A stretch of 61,407 nucleotides of DNA from a virus. Lineage: Duplodnaviria; Caudoviricetes. Of this stretch, positions 10,356 through 53,394 are shown in pieces; the first letter of the stretch is position 1, and the number at the start of each line of letters is the position of its first letter. Made by a program: the position numbers and the translations under genes. The stretch covers positions 1-61,407 of IMG/VR virus record IMGVR_UViG_3300023174_000176; one strand, 5' to 3'. The notes beneath the pieces are model-generated. The model did no database searches, had not been told where the DNA came from, and saw nothing but the letters and a program-made list of their open reading frames with translations.

Positions 10356-10979
10356 ATGGTAACAATAGAATTATTAACAGCAATGTGTCCAAAAACAAAA
10401 CGCTCTATATTAGAGAGTTATGTTGAACCATTAAACACAGTAGCAGAATACTACGAGATGTTTGAGAACCCTCGCCGTGTTGCAGGTTTCTTAGCACAAA
10501 TAGCACACGAATCAGGTGGCTTCAATGCCGTCATTGAAAATTTAAACTATTCAGCAAAAGGTTTGATGGGTACTTTTAAGAAGTATTTTCCTACAGAAGA
10601 ACTAGCAAAGCAATATGAACGCAAGCCAGAAATGATTGCTAATCGTGTTTATGCTAATCGTATGAAGAACGGTGATGAGAACTCAGGAGATGGATTTAGA
10701 TTCAGAGGTCGCGGATTAATTCAATTGACTGGTCGTGATAATTATACACGTTTTGCAGAAGCATTAGATATGAGTATTGAAGATACTGTAAGATATTTAG
10801 AGACACCAAACGGTGCTGTTGCTAGTGCTGGCTGGTTTTGGGATAATAACAAACTAAATCAGTTCTGTGATAAAGACGATTTCATTACATTAACTAAACG
10901 TATTAATGGTGGAACTATTGGTTTAGAAGATAGAAAACATCACTATCATTTAGCATTACAACATTTAGGCGCACATTAA
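10356..10979 (+). CDS. Glycoside hydrolase family 19 endolysin
   Basis: FLAQIAHESGGF, ENLNYSA, FRGRGLIQLTGRDNY and TKRINGG motifs. Confidence 0.9.
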   Translation: MVTIELLTAMCPKTKRSILESYVEPLNTVAEYYEMFENPRRVAGFLAQIAHESGGFNAVIENLNYSAKGLMGTFKKYFPTEELAKQYERKPEMIANRVYANRMKNGDENSGDGFRFRGRGLIQLTGRDNYTRFAEALDMSIEDTVRYLETPNGAVASAGWFWDNNKLNQFCDKDDFITLTKRINGGTIGLEDRKHHYHLALQHLGAH

Positions 10980-33117: not shown

Positions 33118-34884
33118 ATGAATTTAAAAGAACTTGATTCCTTTCGTATCTCTGACGCCATTAGTTTCCATGACAAATTGAATCCTAAACTTTGGAATAA
33201 TAATAACCTACGCCCAGAAGTCAAAAAACAATTATTAATCATAGCAGAAGATTTTTTAGAAGAATTAGGCATTAGTGGTTTAGATGTAGCAGACATGACT
33301 ATATCTGGATCTAATGCCGCATACAGTTATACACCAAACAGCGACCTAGACTTACATATATTAGTTGATATGAGTAAGTTGCCAAACAATGAAGTTTATA
33401 AAGAATTATTTACAGCAAAAAAATCATTATACAATGACAGCCACGATATAAAGATACACGGGATACCAGTAGAGTTATATGTACAAGACGCCAGAGAACC
33501 AGTCGTAAGTCTAGGTGAGTACAGTCTCAAAAATGATAACTGGCTTAAAATCCCATCTAAGCGCAGAGCCAATTTTGACCAAACCGCCACCAAAACAAAA
33601 TATGAAAAGTTATTAACATTAATAGAGCTAGCCCTCAAATCCAGAAAATACAGTAAAGTAAGTAATATAATTAAAACAATTAAAAGATATAGACAATCAG
33701 GATTAGATAAGGGTGGCGAGTTTGGTCCTGAGAATTTAGCATATAAAGCATTAAGAGCACAAGGTTACATCACTAAGTTATATGATTTACGTGACAAATT
33801 ACATAGTGAGAAGTTAACTATTGAAACAATGTATCAGCCTATTAATGATGACTATGATCCAAATGGTCCTCCCCCTGGCCCTGAGTTCAAGCCTACAATG
33901 CCTAAGGGCACAGTACGTGTAGATGTTAGTGATGTATATGACTGGTATAAGTTAGGTCAGCATATTAGTAATCTACATGGTTTGGGTAAACATGACTTTG
34001 GTAAAGGACCTCCCAGTACTATATTCTCATTTGGTGATGAAGATACTGAACACAAATACATTAAAGATTTAGAAAAGACAGGATTAACAACAACTGATAT
34101 TGATCCAATTGATCCCAATCAACCTAAGGGAATGCCACGTCAGAAGATAGATCCTACCTATAATGTCAATGAAATTATAGATATGCCGCCGGTTACTAAG
34201 CGCATGGATATACAATCAATGTATAATGATATACAAACTAAACTTAGATATCATGAAGCAACTCAATTAGCACCAATAAATTTTCCAATAACTAACCGGA
34301 TATTTCGTGATGGACAGAACGTATTGAAGTTTTTCTTGTTTAACAAAGAAAATAAACCAGTCTACTATCTTAGTACAAGTAAATTTCATGACGGTTTTAA
34401 AACAGGTGCGGTCGCAGGTGACGCAGAAGTTCAGGGTCAGGGATTGGGCTGGAAATTGTATAAAGCAGTAAGTGATTATTTAGGTGTGCCTTTATATAGT
34501 GATAGTACACAAACTTCTGATAGTAAGAAGGGTATTTGGCAAAAACTAATTGACAACTATCCTAAACAAGTGGTAGGGTATGACCAGTTATCACGTAAAA
34601 ATGTACCTATTAATAACATATATCAGACATTGCCGCCGGATCAATTAAAACATGTAGATGATGATACTAGAAAAAATACATTGTTATTAAAGTTTTTACC
34701 AGGTGTAATACAAGAAGCTAGCGGTTATATTCCATCTGAAAAAGAGAAGAATGACCCGCGTTTTAGTACAGCATTAACAGTAGATGTTAAGCCAGATAGT
34801 ATTAAAAAGAACGCAAAAGCATTCTATTGGAATACTAGTAGAGCCGGTATTCCCCCAACAGCGAAGCCATCAGGCAAAATCTAA
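33118..34884 (+). CDS. Pol-beta-like nucleotidyltransferase plus GNAT-like module (polyprotein)
   Basis: ISGSNA...SDLDLHI...VELYVQ (GS, DxD, E). Later VQGQGLGWKLY resembles an acetyl-CoA binding motif. Late promoter at 33106. Confidence 0.7.
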   Translation: MNLKELDSFRISDAISFHDKLNPKLWNNNNLRPEVKKQLLIIAEDFLEELGISGLDVADMTISGSNAAYSYTPNSDLDLHILVDMSKLPNNEVYKELFTAKKSLYNDSHDIKIHGIPVELYVQDAREPVVSLGEYSLKNDNWLKIPSKRRANFDQTATKTKYEKLLTLIELALKSRKYSKVSNIIKTIKRYRQSGLDKGGEFGPENLAYKALRAQGYITKLYDLRDKLHSEKLTIETMYQPINDDYDPNGPPPGPEFKPTMPKGTVRVDVSDVYDWYKLGQHISNLHGLGKHDFGKGPPSTIFSFGDEDTEHKYIKDLEKTGLTTTDIDPIDPNQPKGMPRQKIDPTYNVNEIIDMPPVTKRMDIQSMYNDIQTKLRYHEATQLAPINFPITNRIFRDGQNVLKFFLFNKENKPVYYLSTSKFHDGFKTGAVAGDAEVQGQGLGWKLYKAVSDYLGVPLYSDSTQTSDSKKGIWQKLIDNYPKQVVGYDQLSRKNVPINNIYQTLPPDQLKHVDDDTRKNTLLLKFLPGVIQEASGYIPSEKEKNDPRFSTALTVDVKPDSIKKNAKAFYWNTSRAGIPPTAKPSGKI

Positions 34885-34939
34885 TAAGTTTCCTTATTAT
34901 GGTATTTTGATAAATACACTATTAGTATGGAAATCCGTT

Positions 34940-35767
34940 ATGAAAATCAAACAAATCACTGAAACTACAACATCAGGCTCAATAGCTACAATAAATTCAC
35001 CATTAGGTGGTACACAATCTAGGGGAAATCCTAGCATATATGGTGGAAAGAAAGTAGGATCTTTATTCAAGGGTAAAAAAACTAGTGCTCCATATGCCAA
35101 TAGCATCAATGAAAGTGCTGAACTTAGTGAAGCTGATTTAAGTGAACAAGATTTAATTGTTGTTCCTGGTCAGGGTCGCAAATCAAAGACAGGGTTTGTA
35201 CAACATGGTCAAAGTCGTATAGACCATGAAGTTGAAATGGCACGTAGTGATTTATTCAGTGCCGCACAGAATGCTCAAAAAGTTTATTCTATGATTAAAG
35301 ACCTCAGTGAAGAAGAAGGTCTTGAAGGCTGGGTACAAGAAAAGATTATCAAAGCTAATGACTATCTAAACACTATACGTGAATACTTAGAAGGTAAACA
35401 ACTTCAAGGTGTTGATGAAAGCATAGAGAATAATCCAGTAGCAAATGCACTCATAACTCATATAATGAAAAATCGTCCTGATTTATTAAAATATGGTGCT
35501 GATCGTGTAGGTGATGCAATTGATAGAGTTGCAAGTAATGTTAGACATATCAACTCTGATAATATAGGTAAAGTTATTAAACAAATTGAATATTATGTTA
35601 CAAGTAATAACAATGACATGTATGAAGGTGCTAAAGTAGATAGAATGGTTAAGCACATTGAAAAGTCAGAAGAAAAAGCTGGTAAAAGTAAAAAAGAAGC
35701 AGAGAACATTGCTTGGGCCACTGCTAATAAGCGTGGTATGTTAGATAACAAGAATAAGAAAGCATAA
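34940..35767 (+). CDS. Putative internal head polyprotein
   Basis: Starts MKIKQITE after the late promoter at 34909; modules bounded by INE, LSE, VDE and MYE. Confidence 0.6.
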   Translation: MKIKQITETTTSGSIATINSPLGGTQSRGNPSIYGGKKVGSLFKGKKTSAPYANSINESAELSEADLSEQDLIVVPGQGRKSKTGFVQHGQSRIDHEVEMARSDLFSAAQNAQKVYSMIKDLSEEEGLEGWVQEKIIKANDYLNTIREYLEGKQLQGVDESIENNPVANALITHIMKNRPDLLKYGADRVGDAIDRVASNVRHINSDNIGKVIKQIEYYVTSNNNDMYEGAKVDRMVKHIEKSEEKAGKSKKEAENIAWATANKRGMLDNKNKKA

Positions 35768-38411: not shown

Positions 38412-38852
38412 ATGTTATCAGATAATTTAAAAGTATTATTAGCAAGTACACAAAGTTTTGCTATCAAGTCACAGAATTTTCATTGGAACGTGGAGGGAAG
38501 TAACTTCCCGCAATATCATGCATTCTTTGATACATTATACGGTGATGTAAGTGCAACTATTGATCCTATCGCTGAATACATCAGAATCTTAGGTCATTAC
38601 ACTCCTGGTAGTTTGTCACGTTATGCTGAACTAAGTATCATTCAAGACCAAACTAAGATTCCACGTGCTGAATTAATGTTTGCCGAATCATTGCAAGATT
38701 GTGAAACAATGCTTCAGTTAGTAACAGCAATGTTTGATGAGGCAGCTAATGAGAATCAACATGGTATTGAAAACTATATGGCTGAACTACAAGATTTGTA
38801 CGGCAAGAAAGCATGGTTCATTCGTTCTATATTAAAAAGAGAACGTGAGTGA
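38412..38852 (+). CDS. dps: Dps-family mini-ferritin
   Basis: NFHWNVEGSNFPQYHAFF and D.IAEYIR.LG. Confidence 0.85.
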   Translation: MLSDNLKVLLASTQSFAIKSQNFHWNVEGSNFPQYHAFFDTLYGDVSATIDPIAEYIRILGHYTPGSLSRYAELSIIQDQTKIPRAELMFAESLQDCETMLQLVTAMFDEAANENQHGIENYMAELQDLYGKKAWFIRSILKRERE

Positions 38853-38913: not shown

Positions 38914-39840
38914 ATGCAATTTAGTGGAATGGTTTTAACTGGTGGATTTATTTATACTTCACCGCCCCCTCTTAGCGGACCAACGCAAAAGGCTATTTTT
39001 GGTTATGGTGGTACAAATGCAGGCAGATTATCAGTAACTAACTTGGTAAGTAATACAGGTGTAGTTAGTAATGATGTAACTGGAGTTGGTACTGCTAGAG
39101 ATGGCTTAGCGGCTGCAGGTTATGGTGGTGACAAAGCTATATTTGGATATGGTTTTTACTCTACATTAATTAATTTAGTATCAAATACGGGTGTTGTTGC
39201 TACTGATGGCGCAGGGATAGGTACTGCTAGAACTTATCTTGCGGCCGCAAGTTACGGAACTGATAAAGCTATATTTGGATATGGTATTAATGCGTCCGGT
39301 TTCAGTGTGTCATTGACTAACAAAGTATCAAACACAGGTGTAGTAGCCACAGATACAACTGGTGTAGGAACCGCTAGATATGGTATTGCAGCTGCCGGAT
39401 ACGGAACCGATACAGCTATATTTGGATATGGGGATACTGGATCTTCACAAGTGTCAATGACTAACTTAGTAAGTAATACAGGCGTTGTATCTGCAGATAC
39501 AACAGGTGTAGGTACTGCTAGAAGTTTACTTGCGGCCGCAGGTTATGGTACAGATAAAGCTATATTTGGTTTCGGTGGATCTTATTCAAATATAATGAAC
39601 AGAGTATCAAACACAGGTATAGTTGCTAATAATACTTCAGGTGTTGGTACTGGTAGGTCTCAGTTAGCAGCCGCAGGTTATGGAAGTGATAAAGCTATAT
39701 TTGGATATGGTGATACTACTAGTAGTGGTACAGTGTCAATGACTAACCTAATATCAAATACTGGTGTAGTTGCAACTGATACTACTGGCGTAGGTACTAG
39801 CAGATTTTCATTAGCAGCCGCAGGTTATTCATTTACTTAA
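38914..39840 (+). CDS. Six-repeat beta-propeller-like protein (KAIFGYG type)
   Basis: Six (K/T)AIFG(Y/F)G...N.VSNTGVV..D..GVGT.R..LAAA.YG repeats after a Gly-rich N-peptide and PPP. Confidence 0.75.
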   Translation: MQFSGMVLTGGFIYTSPPPLSGPTQKAIFGYGGTNAGRLSVTNLVSNTGVVSNDVTGVGTARDGLAAAGYGGDKAIFGYGFYSTLINLVSNTGVVATDGAGIGTARTYLAAASYGTDKAIFGYGINASGFSVSLTNKVSNTGVVATDTTGVGTARYGIAAAGYGTDTAIFGYGDTGSSQVSMTNLVSNTGVVSADTTGVGTARSLLAAAGYGTDKAIFGFGGSYSNIMNRVSNTGIVANNTSGVGTGRSQLAAAGYGSDKAIFGYGDTTSSGTVSMTNLISNTGVVATDTTGVGTSRFSLAAAGYSFT

Positions 39841-39844
39841 AATA

Positions 39845-41095
39845 ATGAGAGCAATAGAATTTATTATTGAAACTGATAACCAAGTAGCAGTTGATGCTCT
39901 GCTAAAAAAACATGGCTGGTCTATAGGTAAAACAGTTAACGGTGATCTTGCTATTACTTGGCAGGGAAGTACTTATGTGTTTTATGGTGAGCGTGTAAGA
40001 ATCACATTGCCTAATGGTAAGACTATTTCTGTTGTATGGGGTAAGAAGCCCGATTGGCGCGGCCGTAGCGATGATGAACTTAGTTTTGCACAAGCAGTAC
40101 AAAACAAATACATTACATTTGATTTACCTATTTGGCAACAATTGGATCGTGGTCAAATCAACGACTCACAGGCTATACAAAAATTTAAAATAGAGAATGA
40201 ACGTCAAGCTAGAGAAGCAATTGCACAAGGTGTGACTGAAGGCATTGTTGAACAACCAAATCCTAAAGTAGATTTGACACCTAACTATCCCAACTATCAA
40301 GTTTTAGTTGGTGAGTTTATTGGCATAAAAAAGAATAGAGCAAGATTTTTAATTGTAGCATCTGAACTTAAACCAGGGGTACGTGAGACCGATAATATAT
40401 TCAGAGCAAGAACAACTAATACACCAATCAGTATTGAGATTAGTAAAGTAAAAAATCGTACAGTATTAGAAGATTTAAGCCGTAGAGGATTCTTAGGTGG
40501 TTTAGGTGCCGCCGCATTAAGTTCAGCAGGTGTGGCACAAGCTAAACATACTCAACCCACCTCACAACAAAAATCAGAACCGATCAATTTGTTGAGTAAT
40601 CATCCTCAACATGAAGCAATATTACAACGTGCAGCCAAACAAGCTGGTATAAAAGGTATTGAATTAGCACAGTTTATGGCACAAACTAATCATGAATCAT
40701 GGGACTTCAGCAGATTAAAAGAAAAGAGCATAGGTAAAGGGTATTTTGCTAAAAAGTATGATCCTAAATATAGTCCTAAAACTGCAAAGATATTAGGTAA
40801 TAAACAGGTAGGTGACGGAGAAAAATTTCATGGGCGTGGATTTATTCAACTAACCGGCCGTGATAACTATCGTATGGCTAGTCAAGCATTAGGCATTGAT
40901 TTATTAAATCAACCTGACTTAGCAGAACGTCCTGATATTGCAGCCAAAATTGCAGTATGGTATTGGCAAACAAGAGTTAAACCACATATAAATAACTTTA
41001 ACGATACAAAAGCAGTAACAAAAAAGATTAATCCAGCACTACGTGGATTACAAGATAGACATGCAAAGTTTATTGATTACAAAAATATTTTATAA
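39845..41095 (+). CDS. Polyprotein ending in a GH19 muramidase preceded by an internal Tat-like signal
   Basis: MRAIEFIIE start; SRRGFLGG..AQA; AQTNHES, HGRGFIQLTGRDNY and TKKIN. Confidence 0.8.
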   Translation: MRAIEFIIETDNQVAVDALLKKHGWSIGKTVNGDLAITWQGSTYVFYGERVRITLPNGKTISVVWGKKPDWRGRSDDELSFAQAVQNKYITFDLPIWQQLDRGQINDSQAIQKFKIENERQAREAIAQGVTEGIVEQPNPKVDLTPNYPNYQVLVGEFIGIKKNRARFLIVASELKPGVRETDNIFRARTTNTPISIEISKVKNRTVLEDLSRRGFLGGLGAAALSSAGVAQAKHTQPTSQQKSEPINLLSNHPQHEAILQRAAKQAGIKGIELAQFMAQTNHESWDFSRLKEKSIGKGYFAKKYDPKYSPKTAKILGNKQVGDGEKFHGRGFIQLTGRDNYRMASQALGIDLLNQPDLAERPDIAAKIAVWYWQTRVKPHINNFNDTKAVTKKINPALRGLQDRHAKFIDYKNIL

Positions 41096-41105: not shown

Positions 41106-41543
41106 ATGAAAAAAATAATAACAATCGCATTATTAGCAATATCTACTATAGCATTTGCACAAAAACAAAAACCAATGAATATATATGATTTTCCAATCAC
41201 TAGAGTTATTGATGGCGATACCGTAGCATTTCAAGCACCGTTCTTACCTCCACCATTAAAACAAGAACTAAGTATTCGTGTGTTTGGTGTTGATACACCT
41301 GAAAAAGGTCATAGAGCAATGTGTCCACAAGAAGACCAACGTGGACAAGCCGCTACAGCATTCACAAAAAATGCTATAACTAAAGCACAGAAACGTCAAG
41401 TAGCTATTATTGATTGGGATAAGTATGGTGGACGTGTATTGGGTGATATATTACTTGATGGGCAAAGTTTAAGAATGATGTTAATACAGAATGGATTTGC
41501 AAGAGAATACTACGGAGAAGCTAAGACTTCTTGGTGTAACTAA
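41106..41543 (+). CDS. Secreted thermonuclease (SNase-like)
   Basis: Sec signal peptide; RVIDGDT, GVDTPE and DKYGGRVLG. Confidence 0.9.
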   Translation: MKKIITIALLAISTIAFAQKQKPMNIYDFPITRVIDGDTVAFQAPFLPPPLKQELSIRVFGVDTPEKGHRAMCPQEDQRGQAATAFTKNAITKAQKRQVAIIDWDKYGGRVLGDILLDGQSLRMMLIQNGFAREYYGEAKTSWCN

Positions 41544-41642: not shown

Positions 41643-42218
41643 ATGAGAGCAATAGAACTATACGAATCAGCCGCAAGTGAACTAGCTAAGAAACTTCCTA
41701 GCTTAGAGAAACACGACTATAATACCATTGATAAACTAATGAAAAATATAGCAAAAAAACATCAGATAACTGGTGATGCATTGCATGACTTATTTGTTAG
41801 AAAATATCACAAAACTCCGGACAGTTGGATTAAAGATAAACTAGATGAGAGTGGACAAGAAGATTTAAATAGTAATCCTATTGTACAGAAGTTTTTAGCT
41901 TGGACAAGTAAGAAGTTAAATTTACAAAGTACACCAAAGATAGAGTTTAGCTATGATAGTAAAGAAGCACAAGAAGGACATCATACTGGTAGACATAATC
42001 CAGAGACGGGTGAAGTATGGGTTTATTGTGCTAATAGAAATTTAGTAGATATATTTCGTACAGTATTCCATGAATTAGTTCATGTACGTCAAGGTGAATT
42101 AAATATGATTAAGCCTGGTGATAGTTATCCAGGTAGTCCTATAGAAGCAGAAGCAGATATGATGGCTGGAAAATATATTAAAATATTTGGTAAAGCACAT
42201 CCCGAAATTTTTCAATAA
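41643..42218 (+). CDS. HExxH zinc metallopeptidase-like protein with capsid-targeting-like N-terminus
   Basis: MRAIELYE; RTVFHELVH...IEAEA; CATAAATA at 41630. Confidence 0.7.
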   Translation: MRAIELYESAASELAKKLPSLEKHDYNTIDKLMKNIAKKHQITGDALHDLFVRKYHKTPDSWIKDKLDESGQEDLNSNPIVQKFLAWTSKKLNLQSTPKIEFSYDSKEAQEGHHTGRHNPETGEVWVYCANRNLVDIFRTVFHELVHVRQGELNMIKPGDSYPGSPIEAEADMMAGKYIKIFGKAHPEIFQ

Positions 42219-42228: not shown

Positions 42229-43224
42229 ATGTCAGTAACAATAACAGGCGGAATATCATTTGGTGGAGGAGTAGGAATAACTGCCGGACCACCGACAATG
42301 CCTACAGCAGGATGGTTTGGTGGAGGTTATAATCTTGGTCCAGGTAGTGCAGGTAGGTCAACCGTAGAACGTATGACTTTTGCGACAGATACTTCTGCAT
42401 TGACTATCACCGGTCCTTTAAGTCAAGCTAGAAGGCAGTTAGGATCAGCGGGTACCCCTACTGCCGGCTGGTTTGCAGGTGGATATATTTTAGGTGGCGG
42501 GCCCGGCATCTTGTCCAGAGTAGATCGCATTACATATTCAACTGATACAGCAACTGCTAGCGTTCGTGGACCACTGGCTAGTGCTAGATACTATATTGCA
42601 GGCACTTCAAATTATACTACTAATGGCTGGTTTGGTGGAGGTGGTAACTTTGGTTCACCGGTATCTGCTGTACAAAGTATTACATATTCTACAGATACTG
42701 CAACTGCCGTTTTACGAGGACCATTAAGCATAGCAAGAACAGCAGTAAACTCAACAGGTACTAGTAGTTACGGATGGTTTATGGGAGGAGCCTCGCCAGG
42801 CGTGGTGTCTACTATAGACCGTATTGACTATTCAAATGATACTGCAACAGCAAGTATACGTGGTCCATTAGCATCCGCAAGATATACAGGTGTAGGAGCA
42901 GTTACTGATTTTACTACATATGGTTGGTACGGTGGAGGTAATTCCGGACCAACATCAACTCTGATACAACGTGTAACTTTTGCAACAGATACCGCAACCG
43001 CAACTAATCGCGGAACGTTATCAGGAGGTGTAAATCAATTTGGTGGTTCTGTTAATAACGGCACGTATGGCTGGATTGCTGGGGGCGGCACCCCACCTAA
43101 TGGTGGTGCAGGGAGTTCAGTTATACAACGTATTACATATGCAAATGATACCGTAGGAACAACTAATGTGAGTAATTTAAGTCTAGGTAAAGCATTTTTA
43201 GCTGGTAATTCAGGCGTACAATAA
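42229..43224 (+). CDS. Six-blade Kelch-like propeller protein 1
   Basis: Six GW(F/Y/I)xGG...RITY.TDTATA..RGPL repeats; ends SGVQ. Confidence 0.75.
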   Translation: MSVTITGGISFGGGVGITAGPPTMPTAGWFGGGYNLGPGSAGRSTVERMTFATDTSALTITGPLSQARRQLGSAGTPTAGWFAGGYILGGGPGILSRVDRITYSTDTATASVRGPLASARYYIAGTSNYTTNGWFGGGGNFGSPVSAVQSITYSTDTATAVLRGPLSIARTAVNSTGTSSYGWFMGGASPGVVSTIDRIDYSNDTATASIRGPLASARYTGVGAVTDFTTYGWYGGGNSGPTSTLIQRVTFATDTATATNRGTLSGGVNQFGGSVNNGTYGWIAGGGTPPNGGAGSSVIQRITYANDTVGTTNVSNLSLGKAFLAGNSGVQ

Positions 43225-43235
43225 AGGTAATAAAA

Positions 43236-43469
43236 ATGGCAATAGTATTTAGTGGTGGATTTATAGCAAGTGGATTTACAATAGTAGCAGGACCGGCGGG
43301 ATCTCCACCTAACACAGAGGCGTGGTTTGGCGGAGGTAGAGATTACTTCGGAATCATATTATCAACAATAAACCGTATTACATATGCAACTGATACAAAT
43401 ACAGCATCTGTACGTGGTCCATTAAGTTCAGTCAAATATCAACATGCAGCCGCAAGTAATATTCAATAA
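43236..43469 (+). CDS. Single-blade paralog
   Basis: Own RBS, N-peptide, one repeat, ends SNIQ. Confidence 0.7.
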   Translation: MAIVFSGGFIASGFTIVAGPAGSPPNTEAWFGGGRDYFGIILSTINRITYATDTNTASVRGPLSSVKYQHAAASNIQ

Positions 43470-43505
43470 TATTTTCATCACTGATATCCCCCGCTAAATA
43501 TCTAC

Positions 43506-44162
43506 ATGTCAATATTAATAGGAATGCCTTGCTACGGCGGAGTAGTATCAGATAAAACAACTAATGCCCTCTTTAAATTGGGTAAACAATTAGTTAGAAA
43601 TAACATAGATCACGGAATGCTCACACTTGCAAACGAAAGTTTAATAAGTCGTGGTCGCAGTCGTATAGCTAACTTCTTCATAAACAATACTAATTTTGAA
43701 TATCTGTTCTTTTTAGATAGCGATGTTGGTTTTGAAGCTGATGATGTACTAAAACTTCTTAATCACAATAAAGAAATGGTATGCGGTGCTTACCCAATGA
43801 AAACAATACCACTAAAATGGAACTTCACACTCACAGAACCAAAACACCGTGAAGGTGATCTAGTCGCTATAGATAAAATTGGTATCGGTTTCAGTCTCAT
43901 TCACCGTAACGTATTCATTCGTATAGCAAAACAATACCCAGAACTTAAATATACACCAACAAACGAAAGTACAACACATAACCCAACTGAAGATGAATAT
44001 AATAACAGCTATCACTACTTCCATGAAATGCGTCAAGGTGATATATATTTACCAGAAGATTTAAGCTTCTTTACAAGAGCACGTAATGTAGGAATGCAAG
44101 CTTGGATGGATACTAGTATCAATCTATGTCACGTTGGTAGTCATGTCTTTCAGGAACTATAA
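43506..44162 (+). CDS. GT-A fold glycosyltransferase-like protein
   Basis: GMPCYGG, SLISRGRS, FLDSDV, PEDLSF and CHVG. Confidence 0.7.
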   Translation: MSILIGMPCYGGVVSDKTTNALFKLGKQLVRNNIDHGMLTLANESLISRGRSRIANFFINNTNFEYLFFLDSDVGFEADDVLKLLNHNKEMVCGAYPMKTIPLKWNFTLTEPKHREGDLVAIDKIGIGFSLIHRNVFIRIAKQYPELKYTPTNESTTHNPTEDEYNNSYHYFHEMRQGDIYLPEDLSFFTRARNVGMQAWMDTSINLCHVGSHVFQEL

Positions 44163-44776
44163 TGAAAACTAATATTGTAATTATTGATGACTTCCTAGAT
44201 GACCCTTATCAAATGCGATTAAACGCATTAAACTCAAATTATCCAGAACCAAAAGATCATACATATCCGGGAAAAAACTCTGATAAATCTTACTTCACAG
44301 AAGAAATGCTAGAGAAGGTACAAAATCGTTGGGGTGATTACTTAATCCCAGCAGAAGGTAGTAGTTGTGGCTATTTTAGAATTAGTTTAGCAACTGATAC
44401 CTTTGAACAAAATATACATATTGATCCAGGATGGGATGTAGGTGGCGTACTATATCTTAATACACCAAATCAATGTCGTCCAGAATCTGGAACACACTTT
44501 TATTATCATAACAGATTGGGTATAGAACGTGCACCAGCTACACCAGAAGAAGGTAAGTTCTTAGGATTTAGTTGTTATGAAGAAATACGTAAAAATATAA
44601 TATATGGTGATGGGCTTGATAAAAGTTTATGGACACGTTATGCATCTAGTCCAATGAAATATAATCGTTTAGTATTGTTTGATCCACTATTATGGCACAG
44701 TCATGGTGATAACTTTGGTGACTGTTTAGATAACGGCAGATTGGTTATGTTGTTCTTCTTTACTAAACAAAAATGA
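44162..44776 (+). CDS. 2OG-Fe(II) oxygenase-like protein (DUF6445-like)
   Basis: IIDDFLDDP, YPG, HID, GVLYLN, GTHFY, YNRLVLF..H and R.V.LFF. Confidence 0.7.
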   Translation: MKTNIVIIDDFLDDPYQMRLNALNSNYPEPKDHTYPGKNSDKSYFTEEMLEKVQNRWGDYLIPAEGSSCGYFRISLATDTFEQNIHIDPGWDVGGVLYLNTPNQCRPESGTHFYYHNRLGIERAPATPEEGKFLGFSCYEEIRKNIIYGDGLDKSLWTRYASSPMKYNRLVLFDPLLWHSHGDNFGDCLDNGRLVMLFFFTKQK

Positions 44777-45267
44777 AATCAGCTTACTACGTACCAAACT
44801 TCCCAATAAATCGTATCACGCAAACCGGTGAAGATGGTTGGTGTCATATGCCAAATCATCCACGTAGTCGTTATGATTATTTGGGTGCTATATTAGAACA
44901 TATGGATAACAGTAAACGTATTGACCCAATACAAATAATTATACATGATGAACAACAAGTACATGCTGGACCAAGTGGTGTATCCAGATTGTTTGCATTA
45001 ACACATCAAAGACAGTATACTCATATACCCTGTATCGTAAGTAGTGAAATATGTTATGAATGGTTTGGTGAAGATGTGGTTAAGATTAACACTACCGAAG
45101 AACTGTTAAGTTACTTTGATCCTAATTATTTACCTAAAAGCTATAGTTTAGATAACGGTGCATTTTGGCATAATGGTGCATGGAGTTATGAGGAACTAGA
45201 ACGTACTATGAATGTATCAGAAGCTACAAAATTACGTATGAAACAAATGATGACAGAAACAAATTAA
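44773..45267 (+). CDS. Hypothetical protein, weakly ParB/sulfiredoxin-like
   Basis: DPIQIII...G.SRLFAL...IPCIV pattern. Confidence 0.45.
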   Translation: MKSAYYVPNFPINRITQTGEDGWCHMPNHPRSRYDYLGAILEHMDNSKRIDPIQIIIHDEQQVHAGPSGVSRLFALTHQRQYTHIPCIVSSEICYEWFGEDVVKINTTEELLSYFDPNYLPKSYSLDNGAFWHNGAWSYEELERTMNVSEATKLRMKQMMTETN

Positions 45268-45268
45268 A

Positions 45269-46114
45269 ATGAAACAAGAATTCTTTTTTTATAGTGGATT
45301 ACCAAGAGCTGGTGGAACAATGTTAGCTTCGGTAATGAACCAACATCCAGACTTATATGTAAGCCCATTAAGCCCAACTGTAGAGTTATTGTATTACACA
45401 GAGAAATATTTTGATGAAGGTAGTGAAGCGTATAGTGCTAATCCACAACCGTTAGCTAAACAGAGTGTATTAGAATCATTACCAAGAGAGTATTATAAGA
45501 ATATACCTAAAAAGTATATTATGGATAACAATAGAGCTTGGCCTAACAATACTGATAGAATTTGTAGATTTATGACTACTAAGCCAAAGATTGTATGTAT
45601 TGTACGAGATATACCATCTATACTAGCTAGTTTTATTGATTTAGTAAATCGTAGTAATAATCCAGGAGAGAACTTCATTGACCGTTGGTTAGTAGATAAT
45701 CGTATGGAATTGAACACTAGAAATCGTTGTTATTATTTGATGCAACCAACTGGGATTGTGAATCAGAGTTTATGGAGTATGTATCAGGGTTACAACAATC
45801 CAAGTATAAAAGCTTGTATGCATATAGTAGAGTATGACAATTTGATTAGTAAACCAGAAGAAACGATGAGTAATATTGTTGATTTTTTAGATATTCCATC
45901 ATATAAATTTGTGTTTAACAAGATTGAGAATGTAACGCCTGTAGATGATGTAACTTACAATTTAGAGGGTATGCATAGTGTACGACCTAAGCTAGCTAGT
46001 AGGAATTTAGATCCTATGGAGATATTAGGCCCTGAGTTAGTTAAGCAGTATTCTGGTTTAGAGTATTGGAGAGAAGCTAAGAAACCGAGTAAAATCAAGC
46101 TGTTTAGTATATAA
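45269..46114 (+). CDS. Sulfotransferase-family protein
   Basis: 5'-PSB loop SGLPRAGGTML, 3'-PB motif VRD....LAS and VEYDNL...PE. Confidence 0.8.
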   Translation: MKQEFFFYSGLPRAGGTMLASVMNQHPDLYVSPLSPTVELLYYTEKYFDEGSEAYSANPQPLAKQSVLESLPREYYKNIPKKYIMDNNRAWPNNTDRICRFMTTKPKIVCIVRDIPSILASFIDLVNRSNNPGENFIDRWLVDNRMELNTRNRCYYLMQPTGIVNQSLWSMYQGYNNPSIKACMHIVEYDNLISKPEETMSNIVDFLDIPSYKFVFNKIENVTPVDDVTYNLEGMHSVRPKLASRNLDPMEILGPELVKQYSGLEYWREAKKPSKIKLFSI

Positions 46115-46146
46115 TATTTGATAAATATACTAACGAGAGATAAATT

Positions 46147-47100
46147 ATGCCAGTAACGATAACAGCAGGAGTAACATTTAGCGGTGGTGGATTGACTATG
46201 GCCTTTGCACCTACACAAGCAACAGCAAGTTGGGCGGCAGGTGGTTATCCTCCATTAACTAGGTCAACAGTAAATAGGATAACATATGCCACTGATACTG
46301 CTACTGCTAGTGTTAGAGGTTCATTAACAGGTAACAATCAAACAGCCGCAGGCACCGGAACTACTATATATGGTTGGTTTGGTGGAGGATACACAACAGC
46401 CACTTATTATAGCACTATACAACGAATAACCTACACAAATGACACTGTTACAGCAACAAATAGAAGTACACTAAGTAATTCTCCTTCTAGTTTAGCAGCA
46501 AGTACAGACGGAACAACATATGGTTGGTTTGGTGGCGGTGATACCCCTGGTGCCGGTAACACATCACTTGTACAACGTTTAACTTTTGCAACAGATACTG
46601 CAGGTACTACTACTAAGGGTCCATTAAGCCTTGCAAGAAGTCAATTTAATGGTATGGGTACTAGTAGTTATGGTTGGTTTGGTGGCGGAGCAGTGCCTGC
46701 ATCAGTATCCAGAGTAGATCGTATTGATTATGCAAATGATACTGCTACTGCTAGCGTCCGTGGTGCGTTAACATCGGCGGTATATGGTGCTGCCGCAATC
46801 AGTGACGGTAGTACTTATGGATACTTCATTGCAGGAATTCCGTATACTAGTGTTACACAACGTATTACTTTTGCAAATGATACAGGACTGGCAACTACTA
46901 GAGGTCCTTATTGGACTGTTATATACGGTGCATCTGGATCAGGTAATGACACATTTGGATATGTTACTGCAGGAAACACCGGTACACCAATCTCTACTGT
47001 AGGACGCATCACATATGCAACTGATACAGCAACCGCAAGTCAGCGTGGTCCTATGACTTATTCTGCCTTCAATATAGCATCAAGTGCAGGTATACAATAA
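46147..47100 (+). CDS. Six-blade Kelch-like propeller protein 2
   Basis: Six repeats; ends AGIQ; late promoter at 46120. Confidence 0.75.
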   Translation: MPVTITAGVTFSGGGLTMAFAPTQATASWAAGGYPPLTRSTVNRITYATDTATASVRGSLTGNNQTAAGTGTTIYGWFGGGYTTATYYSTIQRITYTNDTVTATNRSTLSNSPSSLAASTDGTTYGWFGGGDTPGAGNTSLVQRLTFATDTAGTTTKGPLSLARSQFNGMGTSSYGWFGGGAVPASVSRVDRIDYANDTATASVRGALTSAVYGAAAISDGSTYGYFIAGIPYTSVTQRITFANDTGLATTRGPYWTVIYGASGSGNDTFGYVTAGNTGTPISTVGRITYATDTATASQRGPMTYSAFNIASSAGIQ

Positions 47101-47107
47101 ACAACCA

Positions 47108-48928
47108 ATGATCTCTGGCGCTACCCAATCTGGGTTTCACTTTCTACAAGAACATATCAACTTCCCAACTGATACTTCAGTAGATTTTGACCCGCATAAA
47201 CTAATCAATAGCAATAAACAAATAAAAATACTATGGGCACACTATGCTCATGATCAACCAATATTCTTAAACGTTGATTGGACTAAAATAACACATATAG
47301 TATGTGTAAGTGATTGGCAACGACAACAATTCATTAAGTATCTTAATATACCAAAACATAAAATATCTGTAATACGCAACGGTGGTGCAGATTATTTTAC
47401 ATACAAAGAAAAAACAAACAAAACTCTTATATACGCTAGTACACCATTTCGTGGACTAAAATATCTACCCTATATCTTTAAACAAGTATTAAAACAACAT
47501 CCAGATGCTATACTAAAAGTATTCTCGGGTATGAAATTATACGGAGATAATGATACACAAGAGTTCAAACAGATATACAATGAACTAAAAAACACCCCAA
47601 ATACATTCTATAATGAACCAATAACTCATCAACAACTAGCTAATGAGTTTAGAGAAGCATCAGTATTGGTTTATCCGAATATATGGGAAGAAACAAGCTG
47701 TGTAACATTGATAGAAGCAATGCGTTCAGGATGTTACCCAATATTAAGTGATATAGGTGCATTACCCGAAACAAGTAATGGTTATGGAACAATAGTGCCA
47801 TTAGATGCAACATATCATCCAAGTGGATGGATACCAAGCAAACAGTTTTTAGATGTGTTTGCAGATAATATTTGCCAAGCATTAACTCAAACTAAATATC
47901 ATCATACAAAAGAACAAGCTGAGTGGGCTTGTGAATATTATAACTGGAATACTATTGCCATTCAATGGCATACACTATTAAACAAACTATCAACAAAAGG
48001 ATCAACAATGAAAAAGAAAATGGAAATATCTAATCTAACATCACATACAGGTGATAAGATTGTGCATGATGAGAAAGTACTAACCCAAGTATTTGATGAA
48101 ATATTCCGTTGGGAAGAAGCAGATAAAGAACATGCTCAAGGGCGTAGCAATTTCCAAATTGAAAAGTTTATTGCACTAGATAACTATACTATTCCAAGTG
48201 CGTTCAATGCTATGTTGAAGAATCGTAGAATTATGGCAGAAGGCTTATTCAGCAAAATTACTGAGATGAAAGAACATCAACGTGAGTTTGATTATAAGTG
48301 GAACAAGAAAAACAAAGAAGAACCAATTCAATGGCCAACTAAAGATGGTGGCACTAAGTTGTGCTGGTATGATTTGGATTATTTGAATCTACAAAACTTC
48401 TTAAAGAGTAGTGAGTTAGAGATTCGTGATCGGGTACAACAGATTGCTACGTTTGATAAGATATTAGATAGATTAGTAGAACAGAATGGTGGTCCAATCA
48501 CACGTGAACAGTTTGAGAGTGAAGACCATGTATATTGGGAGCGTAGATTAGCTAACCAAGCTATGGATGAGATGATTAGTCGTAACACTGGTATTGGTGT
48601 TGGTAACATTCACAGTATGCGTAGAGCCAGTGCTCCTACATTGATTTCTGGTGATGTAAATCGTGTTAAGAATGACTTCCCTGATTTAGGTAAAGCGTTG
48701 ACTGGTGGTGAACATAGTGTAGAGTTCTTATTAGAGTTACAGAAGAAAGTTGTTGCTGGTATTGAAGAAGTTACCAGTAGTGATATTTTATCATTAGCTA
48801 ATGAGAAGGTTACTGAGCGTATTGGCATTACTGAAAGATTAGATAGAATGCATGAGAAGCCATCAACACATAGTAAACCAGAAGTTTCTCCAAAAAGTTT
48901 GTTCAATGACAAATGGAATAGTAAATGA
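47108..48928 (+). CDS. GT-B (GT4-like) glycosyltransferase fused to a helical C-terminal domain
   Basis: VCVSDWQ, YASTPFRGL, ETSCVTLIEAM and GALPET. Start set to ATG 47108. Confidence 0.8.
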   Translation: MISGATQSGFHFLQEHINFPTDTSVDFDPHKLINSNKQIKILWAHYAHDQPIFLNVDWTKITHIVCVSDWQRQQFIKYLNIPKHKISVIRNGGADYFTYKEKTNKTLIYASTPFRGLKYLPYIFKQVLKQHPDAILKVFSGMKLYGDNDTQEFKQIYNELKNTPNTFYNEPITHQQLANEFREASVLVYPNIWEETSCVTLIEAMRSGCYPILSDIGALPETSNGYGTIVPLDATYHPSGWIPSKQFLDVFADNICQALTQTKYHHTKEQAEWACEYYNWNTIAIQWHTLLNKLSTKGSTMKKKMEISNLTSHTGDKIVHDEKVLTQVFDEIFRWEEADKEHAQGRSNFQIEKFIALDNYTIPSAFNAMLKNRRIMAEGLFSKITEMKEHQREFDYKWNKKNKEEPIQWPTKDGGTKLCWYDLDYLNLQNFLKSSELEIRDRVQQIATFDKILDRLVEQNGGPITREQFESEDHVYWERRLANQAMDEMISRNTGIGVGNIHSMRRASAPTLISGDVNRVKNDFPDLGKALTGGEHSVEFLLELQKKVVAGIEEVTSSDILSLANEKVTERIGITERLDRMHEKPSTHSKPEVSPKSLFNDKWNSK

Positions 48929-49629
48929 AAAACAATTTATTAACTAACATATTGATTGCACCCAATGTGATTTCCAAAGAGGGTGTAGCTTTTATTATAG
49001 AGCATGCCAAGAGACAGAAGAAAGTTGATTTATCTGTATTTGATCCAGAACAAAGTAACAAGAGTAAAGATACCAAGTTTAGTGTAGATAAGAAGGTTAG
49101 AGATACACAGATGATTGACCTAGAAGATATTGCTAGTGAGATTATTGATTTGTTTCGTAATGTTGTAACCAATGTTATTAATCCATTTTATGAGTTTGAG
49201 GTTAAAGATTCTGAGTTACCGCAGTTATTACATTATGGTATAGATGGGCATTATATGCCACATTGTGATGGAGAGTCGTTATGGAAGCCACCAGGAAATG
49301 AGCCATTAATTTGGCGTAAGAGTACTGATAGAGATTTGAGTACAGTATTATTTTTAAATGATGATTTTGAAGGTGGTGATTTTGTATTCCCTGAATTAAA
49401 AATTAGAGTTCGGCCAGAGCCAGGAATGTTAGTTTGTTTCCCCTCTACGCATGAGTATTTGCATGGTGTTGAGCCAATTACTAAAGGAACCAGATATAGT
49501 ATTGTTAATTGGATGACAGTTAAGGGTTTTCTAAGTATGGAAGAAGAAACTCAGATGATTAATCATAAATACAATATAGGTATTGATAAGCCTATTAATA
49601 AAAAGGAAAAAACATGGCTAAGTACATAA
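48925..49629 (+). CDS. Prolyl-4-hydroxylase-like 2OG-Fe(II) oxygenase
   Basis: HY.PHCD, STVLFLNDDFEGG, FPS...HGVEPITKGTRYSIVNW. Confidence 0.85.
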   Translation: MKNNLLTNILIAPNVISKEGVAFIIEHAKRQKKVDLSVFDPEQSNKSKDTKFSVDKKVRDTQMIDLEDIASEIIDLFRNVVTNVINPFYEFEVKDSELPQLLHYGIDGHYMPHCDGESLWKPPGNEPLIWRKSTDRDLSTVLFLNDDFEGGDFVFPELKIRVRPEPGMLVCFPSTHEYLHGVEPITKGTRYSIVNWMTVKGFLSMEEETQMINHKYNIGIDKPINKKEKTWLST

Positions 49630-50027
49630 AGCATTATTACGTAGATGGTGAGAATTTAGTAGAGTTCTTTGTTGATAAGAACATGGGACCAAATGGTAAG
49701 ACACATCCAAGAATTGATGGATTAGACGTTAAGTTTTGGTTTGTAGACAATAATGGAATTGATTATTGTATGAGTGTAGTACCGGATGAGACTATAATTG
49801 TTCCGACAAATGGATTAGGTGAAGGCACCTATGAGCAGTGGTCCAATGAAGTTGCTGGCCAATTTGAAGCACAGAGAGCAAGTGTAGCCAGTAATAGTGA
49901 TATGTTGACACGTTTGGGTAAGACTGAAGCTGAAGTATTAGCTATGAGTTTTGACAATAGTAGTGTTGATTCAATGTTAGCTAGTTTTGCTCAACTTGTA
50001 CCCGCACCTGAAAACTTAGGTAGTTAA
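49614..50027 (+). CDS. Hypothetical protein
   Basis: 137 aa, AAGGA RBS. Confidence 0.6.
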   Translation: MAKYIKHYYVDGENLVEFFVDKNMGPNGKTHPRIDGLDVKFWFVDNNGIDYCMSVVPDETIIVPTNGLGEGTYEQWSNEVAGQFEAQRASVASNSDMLTRLGKTEAEVLAMSFDNSSVDSMLASFAQLVPAPENLGS

Positions 50028-50050
50028 TTCTTGTTCTAAGCCATAGTAGT

Positions 50051-50070
50051 TATAAATAGTGTGATAAATA
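50051..50070 (+). promoter_or_regulatory. Tandem T4-like late promoters
   Basis: TATAAATA (50051) and GATAAATA (50063) before the propeller array. Confidence 0.65.
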
Positions 50071-50091
50071 CACTATGTTAAAGGAAAAGAT

Positions 50092-51048
50092 ATGGCGATT
50101 GAAATAGGACCAGGTTGGACAATAGGTGGTGGGATAACAGTTTCAACTCCGCCGCCATCAGAAGCAACTGCTGGTTGGTATGCAGGCGGTGCTCCTCCAT
50201 ACGTACTATCAACGATTCAGAGGGTTACTTTTGCAACAGATACAGCAACTGCTAGTAACCGCGGTCCGTTAACGGTAGCTCGTATGACTGCAGGAGCAGT
50301 TAGCACACTTACATATGGATGGGTAGCTGCTGGCTATTTTCCAGAAACATCAACTGTAGAACGTATTACTTTTGCAAGCGACACCGGTGCAACAAGTACA
50401 AGAGGCCCGGTTCTATCAAGAAATGCATTAAGTGGTGCAGGAAATGATACCTATGGTTGGTTTAGTGGATGGGACAATCCCCCACCCGGAAAATCAACAG
50501 TAGACCGTATTACATATGCAAACGATACCGCAACTGCAAGTGTGCGTGGTCCATTAAGCGCAGCCAAAAGGTATATGGGTTCCACTGGTAATAGTAGTTA
50601 TGGTTGGTGGGCCGGCGGCCTAGCCTCTCCAGGTACTACCGTATATGCTACTATGGACCGTATTGATTATGCAAATGATACTGCTACTGCTAGTGTTCGC
50701 GGAAGCTTAAATGTAGCAACGACAGGTTTATCAGCAACGACCGATACATCAACTTATGGTTGGTTTGCCGGTGGGTCAACTTCTCCGGGATCTATTGTAT
50801 CTAATATAGATAGAATGACATTTGCCAATGATACTGCAACTACATCTGCACGTGGACCATTAACACTAGCTAAAACTAAGATAGGCGGTACCGGAAATAC
50901 AACGTACGGATATTACGGTGGAGGAAATAGCCCGGCTGTATCTACTGTACAGCGTATTACATATGCAACTGATACAGCAACGGCCAGTACAAGAGGGCCA
51001 TTAGTTGCAGCCGCATATGGTACTGCTGCATGTTCAGGAATACAATAA
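50092..51048 (+). CDS. Six-blade Kelch-like propeller protein 3
   Basis: Six repeats; ends SGIQ. Confidence 0.75.
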   Translation: MAIEIGPGWTIGGGITVSTPPPSEATAGWYAGGAPPYVLSTIQRVTFATDTATASNRGPLTVARMTAGAVSTLTYGWVAAGYFPETSTVERITFASDTGATSTRGPVLSRNALSGAGNDTYGWFSGWDNPPPGKSTVDRITYANDTATASVRGPLSAAKRYMGSTGNSSYGWWAGGLASPGTTVYATMDRIDYANDTATASVRGSLNVATTGLSATTDTSTYGWFAGGSTSPGSIVSNIDRMTFANDTATTSARGPLTLAKTKIGGTGNTTYGYYGGGNSPAVSTVQRITYATDTATASTRGPLVAAAYGTAACSGIQ

Positions 51049-51063
51049 AATAAAGGTTAAATA

Positions 51064-52020
51064 ATGAGTATAACAATATCAGGTGGATTTACAATGGCAG
51101 GCGGTGGATTTACACTAGTTCCCCCACCCTCAACAAATCCAACTGCAGGATGGTTTGGTGGCGGATCATATGGCGGATACAAATCATTGGTAAACCGTAT
51201 TACATTTGCAACTGATACAGCTACTGCATCAGTTAGAGGTCCTTTGAGTTTGGCTAGAGGAGGTCTTGCTGGCACCGGTAATACAACATATGGTTGGTTT
51301 GGTGGTGGTACCGGACCAACTACTTCATTAGTGGACCGTATTACGTACTCAACTGACACCGATACTGCAACTACTAGAGGTCCGTTAACGGCTGTTGCTT
51401 ATGGACAGGGAGCTACTGGTACATCAACTAATGGCTGGTTTGGTGGTGGATTTGTTGGCGGTAACGTTTCTGCTGTTTATAGAATAACATACGTTACAGA
51501 TACTGCAACTGCAAGTTCACGTGGCCCGTTAAGTTCTGCTAGATATGGTTTGGCAGCAACTACAGATAATACTACATATGGGTGGTTTGGTGGCGGTGCT
51601 AACGCTGCTCCAAGATCAATAGTGGATCGTATTACATATGCAACAGATACTGATACAGCAAGCGTAAGAGGTTCACTAACTGAAGTTAGTAGATTTAATG
51701 CCGGTACCGGCACTACAACTTATGGATATTTTGCAGGAGGTTACTTTCCGGCAGCTCCTTACTATCTGTCTATTGTAAATAGGATAACATATGCAACTGA
51801 TACTGCTACTGCAACTGCACGTGGCCCATTAAGTCAAGCAAGGACTCAGTTAGCGGCTGTTGGCAATGATACTTATGGATATTTTGGTGGTGGAGATGGT
51901 TCCCCTGCTACTTCTACTATAGACCGTATTACATATGCAACCGATACTGCAACCGCTACTAGTGTAGGACCAATGAGTCAAGTAAATAGACTTTATGCAG
52001 GAACTTCGGGTATACAATAA
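51064..52020 (+). CDS. Six-blade Kelch-like propeller protein 4
   Basis: Six repeats; ends SGIQ. Confidence 0.75.
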   Translation: MSITISGGFTMAGGGFTLVPPPSTNPTAGWFGGGSYGGYKSLVNRITFATDTATASVRGPLSLARGGLAGTGNTTYGWFGGGTGPTTSLVDRITYSTDTDTATTRGPLTAVAYGQGATGTSTNGWFGGGFVGGNVSAVYRITYVTDTATASSRGPLSSARYGLAATTDNTTYGWFGGGANAAPRSIVDRITYATDTDTASVRGSLTEVSRFNAGTGTTTYGYFAGGYFPAAPYYLSIVNRITYATDTATATARGPLSQARTQLAAVGNDTYGYFGGGDGSPATSTIDRITYATDTATATSVGPMSQVNRLYAGTSGIQ

Positions 52021-52035
52021 AATAAAGGAATAAGA

Positions 52036-53007: not shown

Positions 53008-53019
53008 AAAGGATTTATA

Positions 53020-53394
53020 ATGTCAGTAACATTTAGTGGTGGAATAACATTTACAGGTGGTGGGTTTAGTTTTACAGCCGCACCTCCACCTACTGCAACA
53101 AATGGTTGGTGGGCAGGCGGTGCGCCATCAAACTCTGCAGTATCACGTATTACTTTTGCTACTGATACAGATTCTGCTACTACTAGAGGACCATTAGCAT
53201 TTAGTCAATTTGATGGTCCTGGTTCAACTGGTAATGGTAATTATGGTTGGTTTGGTGGTGGCTACACTCCTGGACTAGGAACACTTAGTTCAGTTGACCG
53301 AGTAGATTATAGTAATGACACTATTACTGCATCTACTAGGGGTAATACCGGAAGATATGTGCAAGATTTGGGCGCTACAGCAAATATACCGTAA
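53020..53394 (+). CDS. Two-blade paralog
   Basis: First 68 nt identical to 52036; two repeats; ends ANIP. Confidence 0.7.
   Translation: MSVTFSGGITFTGGGFSFTAAPPPTATNGWWAGGAPSNSAVSRITFATDTDSATTRGPLAFSQFDGPGSTGNGNYGWFGGGYTPGLGTLSSVDRVDYSNDTITASTRGNTGRYVQDLGATANIP

Follow-up and report, generated by a model that had tools for sequence, protein, structure and literature searches.

A Tat-like signal buried behind a putative prohead-protease site in a phage GH19 muramidase protein

The window examined in this study, by which we mean the whole analysed stretch of 61,407 nucleotides (IMG/VR virus record IMGVR_UViG_3300023174_000176), is a fragment, 61.4 kb long, of the genome of an uncultured virus, with a G+C content of 36% and a CheckV completeness of 18%, the latter implying a parent genome of about 350 kb. 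Its gene at positions 39845 to 41095 encodes a protein that ends in a glycoside hydrolase family 19 (GH19) muramidase domain and holds, 209 residues inside, a segment resembling a twin-arginine translocation (Tat) signal. A preliminary description of this DNA had claimed that cleavage just in front of the segment unmasks the signal, so that a folded muramidase delivered to the host cytoplasm could use the host Tat system to reach the periplasm. Our analysis confirmed that the buried twin-arginine (RR) segment is real and strongly conserved, beyond what chance would produce. Its setting recalls the internal head proteins of phage T4 and suggests, tentatively, how it might become exposed. The gene is laid out as follows.

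39845..41095, + strand: whole gene, 416 amino acids plus stop, comprising leader, domain A, domain M, Tat-like signal, linker and GH19 domain
39845..39871, + strand: leader MRAIEFIIE (residues 1-9), with a likeness to the T4 capsid-targeting sequence and the end I-I-E
39872..40228, + strand: domain A (residues 10-128), optional, fold unassigned; predicted local distance difference test score (pLDDT) 64-87
40229..40255, + strand: junction 1, G-V-T-E-G-I-V-E-Q (residues 129-137), containing a pair of [V/I]-x-E sites; pLDDT below 50 at 131-139
40256..40462, + strand: domain M (residues 138-206), small and conserved, with nearly invariant residues; pLDDT 72-82
40463..40471, + strand: V207-L208-E209, a putative prohead-protease site bordering on the low-confidence segment 207-247
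40472..40543, + strand: Tat-like signal D210-A233, made of D-L-S-R-R-G-F-L, a Gly/Ala-rich hydrophobic region (h-region) and A-Q-A; RR at 40481-40486
40544..40585, + strand: linker from K234 to residue ~247, with many Pro, Gln and Ser residues; pLDDT 24-41, varying among homologs in length and sequence
40586..41092, + strand: GH19 muramidase domain (residues 248-416; PF00182), with E284 at 40694-40696 and E293 at 40721-40723

The translation of 39845-41092 reads, around the signal, KVKNRT-V207-L208-E209-D210-L-S-R213-R214-G-F-L-G-G-L-G-A-A-A-L-S-S-A-G-V-A-Q-A233-K-H. The layout and positions given by the preliminary description are therefore correct (40463 opens the V207 codon, and VLE precedes D-L-S-R-R), as is its remark that no start codon lies just upstream: the roughly 20 codons before D210 (codons ~190-212) contain no ATG, GTG or TTG. 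An internal start was considered and rejected on this ground, together with the lack of a conserved Met in homologs. In the AlphaFold 2 (AF2) model of the 416-residue protein (mean pLDDT 67.4) three folded parts can be seen, and the only long stretches with pLDDT below 50 are residues 131-139 and 207-247, i.e. both joints. Domain A is missing or swapped for other modules in many homologs, and domain M is missing in a few (P0059, P0069 and P0027). A Foldseek search against the PDB and a wide VIA-align comparison gave no weighty match for either domain, the weighty matches being to GH19 only; for residues 1-97 the best VIA-align rows reached a Z of about 4 (e.g. polo-box domains, the KhtT N-domain and PliC). 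When scanned for hydropathy, residues 1-209 showed no hydrophobic stretch free of charges.

The C-terminal domain can be assigned firmly to GH19 on both profile and model-based grounds. PF00182 matches residues 270-381 with 60.1 bits (cut-off 25.5; E 3.6e-16), and the protein matches the phrog_181 endolysin family at 2.6e-38. When residues 245-416 of the model were compared by VIA-align, the phage GH19 endolysins 7r6s, 9eoi and 9ms7 were retrieved with Z of 12.2-12.7, the best rows being 7r6s_B (Z 12.7, root-mean-square deviation 3.3 over 148 aligned residues) and the GH19 endolysin 9eoi_B (Z 12.3); Foldseek gave E values of 1.9e-5 to 3.2e-4 for the same three structures and 9.9e-5 for the SPN1S endolysin 4ok7. 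The pLDDT of this domain in the model is only 49-84 per 10-residue block. E284 and E293, which we take to be the GH19 catalytic pair, are both invariant in 48 aligned sequences, and E284 in 138.

Conservation of the buried segment was assessed in two collections. The homolog set comprised the best 120 matches, all metagenomic; homologs of the 39845 protein that align over its full length are 73-91% identical to it. The wider set, enlarged by a search seeded with a short relative, comprised 200 cluster representatives. Conserved columns were counted in alignments of 48 and 138 sequences. For five homologs the cluster names read "predicted chitinase" or "putative chitinase". The preliminary description had proposed looking for E-x(1-3)-RRxFL in homologs, and this is indeed kept, as E-D-[L/I]-[S/T]-R-R-x-F, in 119 of 120; the pattern [V/I]-x-[E/D] followed by D-[L/I]-[S/T]-R-R is likewise present in 119 of the 120, at 83-268 residues from the N-terminus, and the arginine pair itself keeps a distance of at least ~86 residues from that end. 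The arginine pair, on whose conservation that description had staked its reading, occurs in all 160 motif-bearing representatives of the 200, although the search pattern would also have accepted K in place of either R; S or T precedes the pair in 157 of them. The codons for the pair vary from locus to locus (CGT, CGC or AGA for the first; AGA, AGG or CGC for the second), which indicates that conservation acts at the protein level. In the 138-sequence alignment E209, D210, R213, R214, G215, F216, L217, G218 and G219 are conserved at 90% or more, and the linker after the signal varies freely. Among open reading frames (ORFs) in all six frames of the window, that of 39845 is the sole match to a pattern in which RR-x-[hydrophobic]2 leads into 14 uncharged residues; the same scan in a 352-kb relative that is complete by CheckV (G001) returned the orthologue and four unrelated matches, one of them with a lipoprotein-type N-terminus.

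At the level of profiles, likeness to a Tat signal was seen with one of two models. The NCBIfam Tat model TIGR01409 (cut-off 16.7 bits) scored 18.4 bits with the full 39845 protein, 19.4 bits with the fragment from D210 and 22.2 bits with the short relative L024, and 61 of the 138 family members matched it at E ≤0.01. The h-region is made of 19 uncharged residues with a mean hydropathy of 1.49, followed by A-Q-A before K; for comparison, the Sec signal of the nuclease encoded by the adjoining gene has a mean hydropathy of 2.53. An h-region of such low hydrophobicity is commonly seen in Tat signals, as it is in signal-arrest-release (SAR) domains. The arginine pair stands at residues 213-214 of 416, and would be N-terminal only after the proposed cut at E209. 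A predicted complex of E. coli TatC with residues 210-262 received a score of 0.00 in both runs, made without controls, and weighs neither way. Neither TatC nor TatA/B/E was found in four related records, so that a Tat step would need the system of the host.

The constancy of the segment stands out against the variety of the proteins that contain it. In 178 of the 200 cluster representatives the signal stands behind a Glu, and in the distant relatives it follows Glu each time, whatever N-terminal part precedes. In the shortest forms (~212 residues) that part is the bare leader, M-R-A-S-E-F-V-A-E followed by D-L-S-R-R-D-F-L, which places RR at residue 13; of 33 forms of this kind, 31 have kept the leader. 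Elsewhere it is the leader with domain M, the leader with domain A or B and domain M, a HAD-like domain, a deaminase or GNAT fusion, an AIG2-like module, or an uncharacterised 330-residue domain with the joint G-V-A-E then D-I-S-R-R. A further example, a polyprotein of 1187 residues in L021, has about 900 residues before the signal and GH19. A second class of relatives reads [L/I/V]-x-E followed by G-W-K-D-W and a Gly/Ala-rich stretch with no RR, and therefore looks like a signal of the general secretory (Sec) type. Nor is the cargo always a muramidase: E followed by D-I-S-R-R-G-F-L precedes a domain of ~70 residues in L021 and L024 and, again in L021, an uncharacterised domain plus deaminase. 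As the modules vary both upstream and downstream, the constant rule appears to be a cut-site motif and then a signal.

Further detail was available for L021 and L024. L021:3016-3981 and L024:4628-6655 share the signal D-I-S-R-R-G-F-L-R-G and the ~70-residue domain, one case of which follows an NMNAT-like module homologous to the window protein at 28323. The L021 polyprotein occupies an open frame of 1187 residues at L021:4983-8534 (1183 from the ATG at 4983) and runs in the order nucleotidyltransferase-like module (a homolog of the window protein at 33118), HExxH module, Tat-like signal with an uncharacterised domain, deaminase-like module, and Sec-like signal with GH19.

The parallel with T4 rests on the leader, the joints and the head genes of relatives. 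T4 IPIII and IPII start with MKTYQEFIAE, and F6, I7 and E9 of MRAIEFIIE correspond to F7, I8 and E10 of T4. According to the review PMC9026906 (section 2.6), no more than the first 10 residues are needed to direct a protein to the T4 head, residues 4 and 7 serving targeting and residues 8 and 10 processing, and Asp at position 10 blocks processing. A leader of this kind heads 115 of the 120 homologs. It is also found in front of other proteins, as seven unrelated G001 ORFs begin with MR-x-x-[E/D]-[F/I]-[I/L/V]-x-E, four of them consecutive with the GH19 gene last.

Sites of the form [L/I/V]-x-E number only eight in the 416 residues, and the leader together with both joints accounts for four of these. 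Every module joint of the protein carries one. In homologs the joints before domain M carry such a site in nearly all cases, and the joint E-G-I-V-E-Q aligns with the leader end E-F-I-T-E-Q of shorter homologs. At the site before the signal, 119 homologs have V (104) or I (15) at P3, eight different residues at P2, E (108) or D (11) at P1, and D at P1' without exception; a conserved P3 and P1 with a variable P2 is the pattern reported for the sites of T4 gp21, as given in the excerpts of PMC9026906. A protease of the matching type is present in the lineage: Pfam S77 (the T4 gp21 family) was detected in three of four related near-complete records (each at least 92% complete), and in G001 the S77 prohead protease (8.8e-28) lies between portal, scaffold and gp23-type capsid genes (PF07068, 9.8e-100). 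With respect to the window, G001 is syntenic, since of the 55 ORFs in the window 36 are matched in it by tblastn, in the same order and at 42-98% identity, apart from a single off-order match of 34%.

In cultured phages the arrangement was not found. The layout of leader, cut motif, signal and GH19 occurs in none of a 50,697-record phage collection; tblastn matches of the whole 416-residue protein to these records cover residues 237 onward only, and those of the 209-residue short form begin at residue 31 only. The endolysin of Synechococcus phage S-H34 has a different N-terminal part with neither leader nor signal. A megablast search with 20 kb of the window gave no match, and the T4 late promoter TATAAATA occurs 7 times in the window, fewer than the 12.2 occurrences expected.

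Taken as a whole, these observations led us to favour, tentatively and at a little under an even chance, a model in which the 39845 protein is a head-packaged cargo polyprotein of a T4-like jumbo phage, cut by the prohead protease in such a way that a signal is exposed for the Tat system of the next host. This model starts from features observed directly, namely the sequence layout and its conservation, the GH19 fold and, in syntenic relatives, the protease and T4-type head genes. The leader MRAIEFIIE would bring the precursor into the prohead core, where a gp21-type protease would cut after [L/I/V]-x-E at E9, at E132 and/or E136, and at V207-L208-E209. The last of these cuts would yield a 207-residue product consisting of signal, linker and GH19 muramidase, in which the twin-arginine motif D-L-S-R-R is now N-terminal. 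As proposed, the product would be ejected with the DNA into the cytoplasm of the next host, as the T4 internal proteins are, and would there refold, be exported by Tat and, in this member of the family, be cut by signal peptidase at A-Q-A before K. A peptidoglycan hydrolase would in this way be in the periplasm at the very onset of infection. The modular relatives suggest a more general scheme, to which we give a somewhat lower, less than even probability: giant T4-like phages inhabiting lakes and seas may practise two-stage targeting, with modular polyproteins loaded by a leader and cut, and pieces bearing a Tat- or Sec-type signal injected and re-exported by the host. That such pieces (the GH19 muramidase, the ~70-residue domain and others) act as virion-delivered periplasmic effectors is, in our judgement, possible to the same degree.

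A number of points weigh against this model. On the side of the signal, 77 of the 138 family members miss the E 0.01 level of TIGR01409, and Pfam TAT_signal (PF10518), with 12.8 bits, stays below its threshold of 22.7. No more than 69 of 119 homologs have AxA after the h-region; the rest often read A-A-L-G-T-R-D-T-K-P or G-N-Y-N-S-Q. On the side of processing, the 11 of 119 homologs with Asp at P1 may be uncut, given that Asp blocked processing in T4; L025 has Thr at P3; S77 has no match in G002, where the Sec-like class is present; and the window, an 18% fragment, contains neither head genes nor a gp21-type protease. The model also assumes a host Tat system, and no benefit of an early periplasmic muramidase can be named, one guess being that the wall of a small cell is loosened for a giant phage. 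Finally, with RR at residue 13 the signal of the short forms is N-terminal enough without any cut, and could thus act in the producing cell. The two central claims of the preliminary description accordingly hold in part. That the segment is a Tat signal is favoured by TIGR01409 (19.4 bits) and weakened by PF10518 and the patchy AxA. That cleavage unmasks it for delivery and export gains from the conserved motif, the gp21-like sites, the protease in three of four relatives, the leader and the TIGR01409 score, and loses by PF10518, AxA and Asp at P1.

The foremost alternative, which we consider unlikely, is that the protein is never packaged and serves as a lysin in the producer cell. The RR segment would then be an internal signal-anchor or SAR-like element working through Tat or Sec, with the N-terminal modules in the cytoplasm and GH19 on the periplasmic side, where it would stay tethered or be released at A-Q-A, the whole acting as a holin-independent or pre-positioned endolysin. 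SAR domains combine weak hydrophobicity with a high content of Gly and Ala, and the h-region fits this description in composition. The ~212-residue relatives, with a signal usable without cleavage, point the same way; yet 31 of the 33 retain the leader, which shows none of the drift of an ordinary n-region (the N-terminal part of a signal peptide). Internal Tat signals do exist in dual Sec-Tat membrane proteins, as described in the available excerpts of PMC3471235 and PMC5449189, but these have transmembrane segments upstream, which the 39845 protein lacks. The nuclease next door, with its plain Sec signal, suggests that phages of this kind export proteins to the periplasm during infection; on the other hand, the role of ordinary endolysin already has a candidate in the signal-less GH19 of the same window (see below). 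What a producer-cell lysin leaves unexplained is the position of the signal directly after [L/I/V]-x-E, the recurrence of the same motif at all joints, a leader common to unrelated soluble proteins, and the cytoplasmic-type modules upstream (deaminase, GNAT, HAD-like and AIG2-like).

Still less probable, in our estimation, is a version in which the protein is packaged and cut as proposed and no Tat step follows: the hydrophobic N-terminus would enter the inner membrane of the host on ejection, and GH19 would widen the hole in the peptidoglycan for DNA entry. Ejected internal proteins with cell-wall hydrolase domains exist, e.g. T7 gp16, and the leader and cut-site evidence applies here equally. 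The G-W-K-D-W class, which keeps the Gly/Ala-rich stretch without RR, allows the argument that the common element is hydrophobic and not specific to Tat. However, this version does not account for the strict S/T-R-R-x-F-L, the arginine pair in 160 of 160 sequences and the TIGR01409 matches; the same signal heads small cargo domains that are not hydrolases; and the gp5-like 920-residue lysozyme protein of G001 is already available for entry. The remaining notion, a flexible linker resembling Tat by chance or a C-terminal part made from an internal start, fits the disordered segment of the AF2 model (pLDDT 24-41) and the sub-threshold PF10518 score but is highly improbable, because the E209-G219 core is nearly invariant while the true linker varies, the RR codons differ, the motif occurs once in the window, and both a start codon in the ~20 preceding codons and a conserved Met are lacking.

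The same window encodes a second GH19 enzyme.

10356..10979, + strand: second GH19, 207 amino acids, without leader or signal; phrog_181 endolysin, 1.6e-74

The preliminary description had noted this separate, unsignalled lysin, and rightly so, given the phrog_181 match and the absence of a hydrophobic stretch. It shares 33% identity with the first GH19, has an orthologue in G001 that is 94% identical, and is probably an ordinary lysin. In G001 an ORF of 920 residues with a T4-lysozyme domain (G001:C1:9578-9952, - strand) adjoins the portal gene, and in G002 an ORF of 1092 residues carries a GH19 domain (G002:C1:20311-20637, + strand) instead of the T4-lysozyme, which may reflect a swap of lytic domains in a gp5-like tail hub. 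SLT and Amidase_2 domains were not found in three related records. The presence in G001 of both the 920-residue lysozyme ORF and the signal-less GH19 leaves room for a distinct role of the 39845 protein.

Several genes around 39845 deserve mention. Directly 3' of it, 41106-41543 (+ strand) encodes a staphylococcal-nuclease-like protein of 145 residues with a plain N-terminal Sec signal, matching the phrog_452 endonuclease family (7.9e-18) and a NucI model (3.8e-10). A signal-bearing secreted protein occupies the same place in L002, L003, L009, L010 and L017, and an upstream one in L023. The nuclease may be periplasmic and made during infection. The next gene but one to the GH19 gene again has a leader-like start.

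41643..42218, + strand: gene with the leader-like start MRAIELYE and an H-E-L-V-H motif

The ORF as listed starts earlier, with GTG at 41625. The H-E-L-V-H motif resembles a metallopeptidase site, and a homolog of the protein forms one module of the 1187-residue L021 polyprotein. On the 5' side, within the leader-bearing cluster, 38412-38852 (+ strand) encodes a Dps/ferritin-like DNA-binding protein (phrog_3636, 2.1e-30) that is 90% identical in G001. Paralogous Gly-rich repeat proteins of the A-I-F-G-Y-G and W-F-G-G-G types are encoded among enzyme genes at 38914-39840 and 42229-53394 (+ strand); most of them have no tblastn match in G001, so that this block is variable between relatives. Two long ORFs in different frames, 33118-34884 and 34784-35767 (+ strand), overlap by ~100 bases.

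Should packaging, cleavage and re-export be borne out, phage-injected proteins would not be confined to the cytoplasm, and an enzyme could be placed in the periplasm within moments of infection, before phage gene expression, via the Tat or Sec system of the host. The T4 internal-protein paradigm would be extended, and bacteria would offer a natural case of a signal peptide unmasked by a protease, in its logic a viral counterpart of the bipartite presequences of chloroplasts. A large aquatic-virome family of uncharacterised "predicted chitinase" genes would be accounted for, and engineered T4 heads could be designed to deliver periplasmic cargo along the same lines.

Among known systems the closest is that of the T4 internal proteins IPI, IPII, IPIII and Alt, with which the 39845 protein shares a short leader with E-F-I-x-E ending in an [L/I]-x-E site, and its lineage shares a gp21-family protease and T4-type head genes. 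As with the T-even internal proteins, so far as the source excerpts describe them, the leader is common to many unrelated proteins. Unlike them, the putative cargo here is built of several modules and has additional sites inside it, and while T4 internal proteins act in the cytoplasm (again as given in excerpts), one of the pieces here would start with an export signal and carry an enzyme that acts in the periplasm. With bacterial Tat signals the segment has in common S-R-R-x-F-L, a moderately hydrophobic Gly/Ala-rich h-region, A-x-A and a passing TIGR01409 score; it differs from them in lying 209 residues inside a precursor with a Glu-Asp flank, in failing PF10518 and in that AxA is not family-wide.

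Exposure of a second signal by proteolysis is familiar from chloroplast lumen proteins, in which, as the excerpts of PMC10267391 describe, a thylakoid signal of the Tat or Sec kind is laid bare once the transit peptide has been removed; in the phage family, too, Tat-like and Sec-like versions both occur. The resemblance is one of logic only, with no homology: the first compartment would here be a capsid, the protease that of the prohead, and the second step would take place in another cell. Dual Sec-Tat proteins such as the actinobacterial Rieske protein Sco2149 have a working twin-arginine motif away from the N-terminus, and in the excerpts available internal Tat signals are described only behind Sec-inserted helices (PMC3471235, PMC5449189). 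Unlike the Sco2149 type, with its Sec-inserted transmembrane helices upstream, the 39845 protein has an upstream part that is soluble and free of hydrophobic segments.

Signal-peptide and SAR endolysins, which are Sec-dependent, offer a further parallel, as here too a muramidase (GH19 endolysin fold, Z 12.7) stands behind a weakly hydrophobic segment rich in Gly, Ala and Ser; in these endolysins the signal is N-terminal, whereas in the 39845 protein it is internal and accompanied by a leader and pro-domains. In the literature covered, which took in some sources as excerpts and left subscription journals outside, no Tat-exported endolysin was found among the papers listed; nor, within the same coverage, was any capsid-targeted protein with a signal peptide. 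Judged from sequence, the element that is novel in this family is what looks like a T4 internal-protein system to which an export signal has been added.

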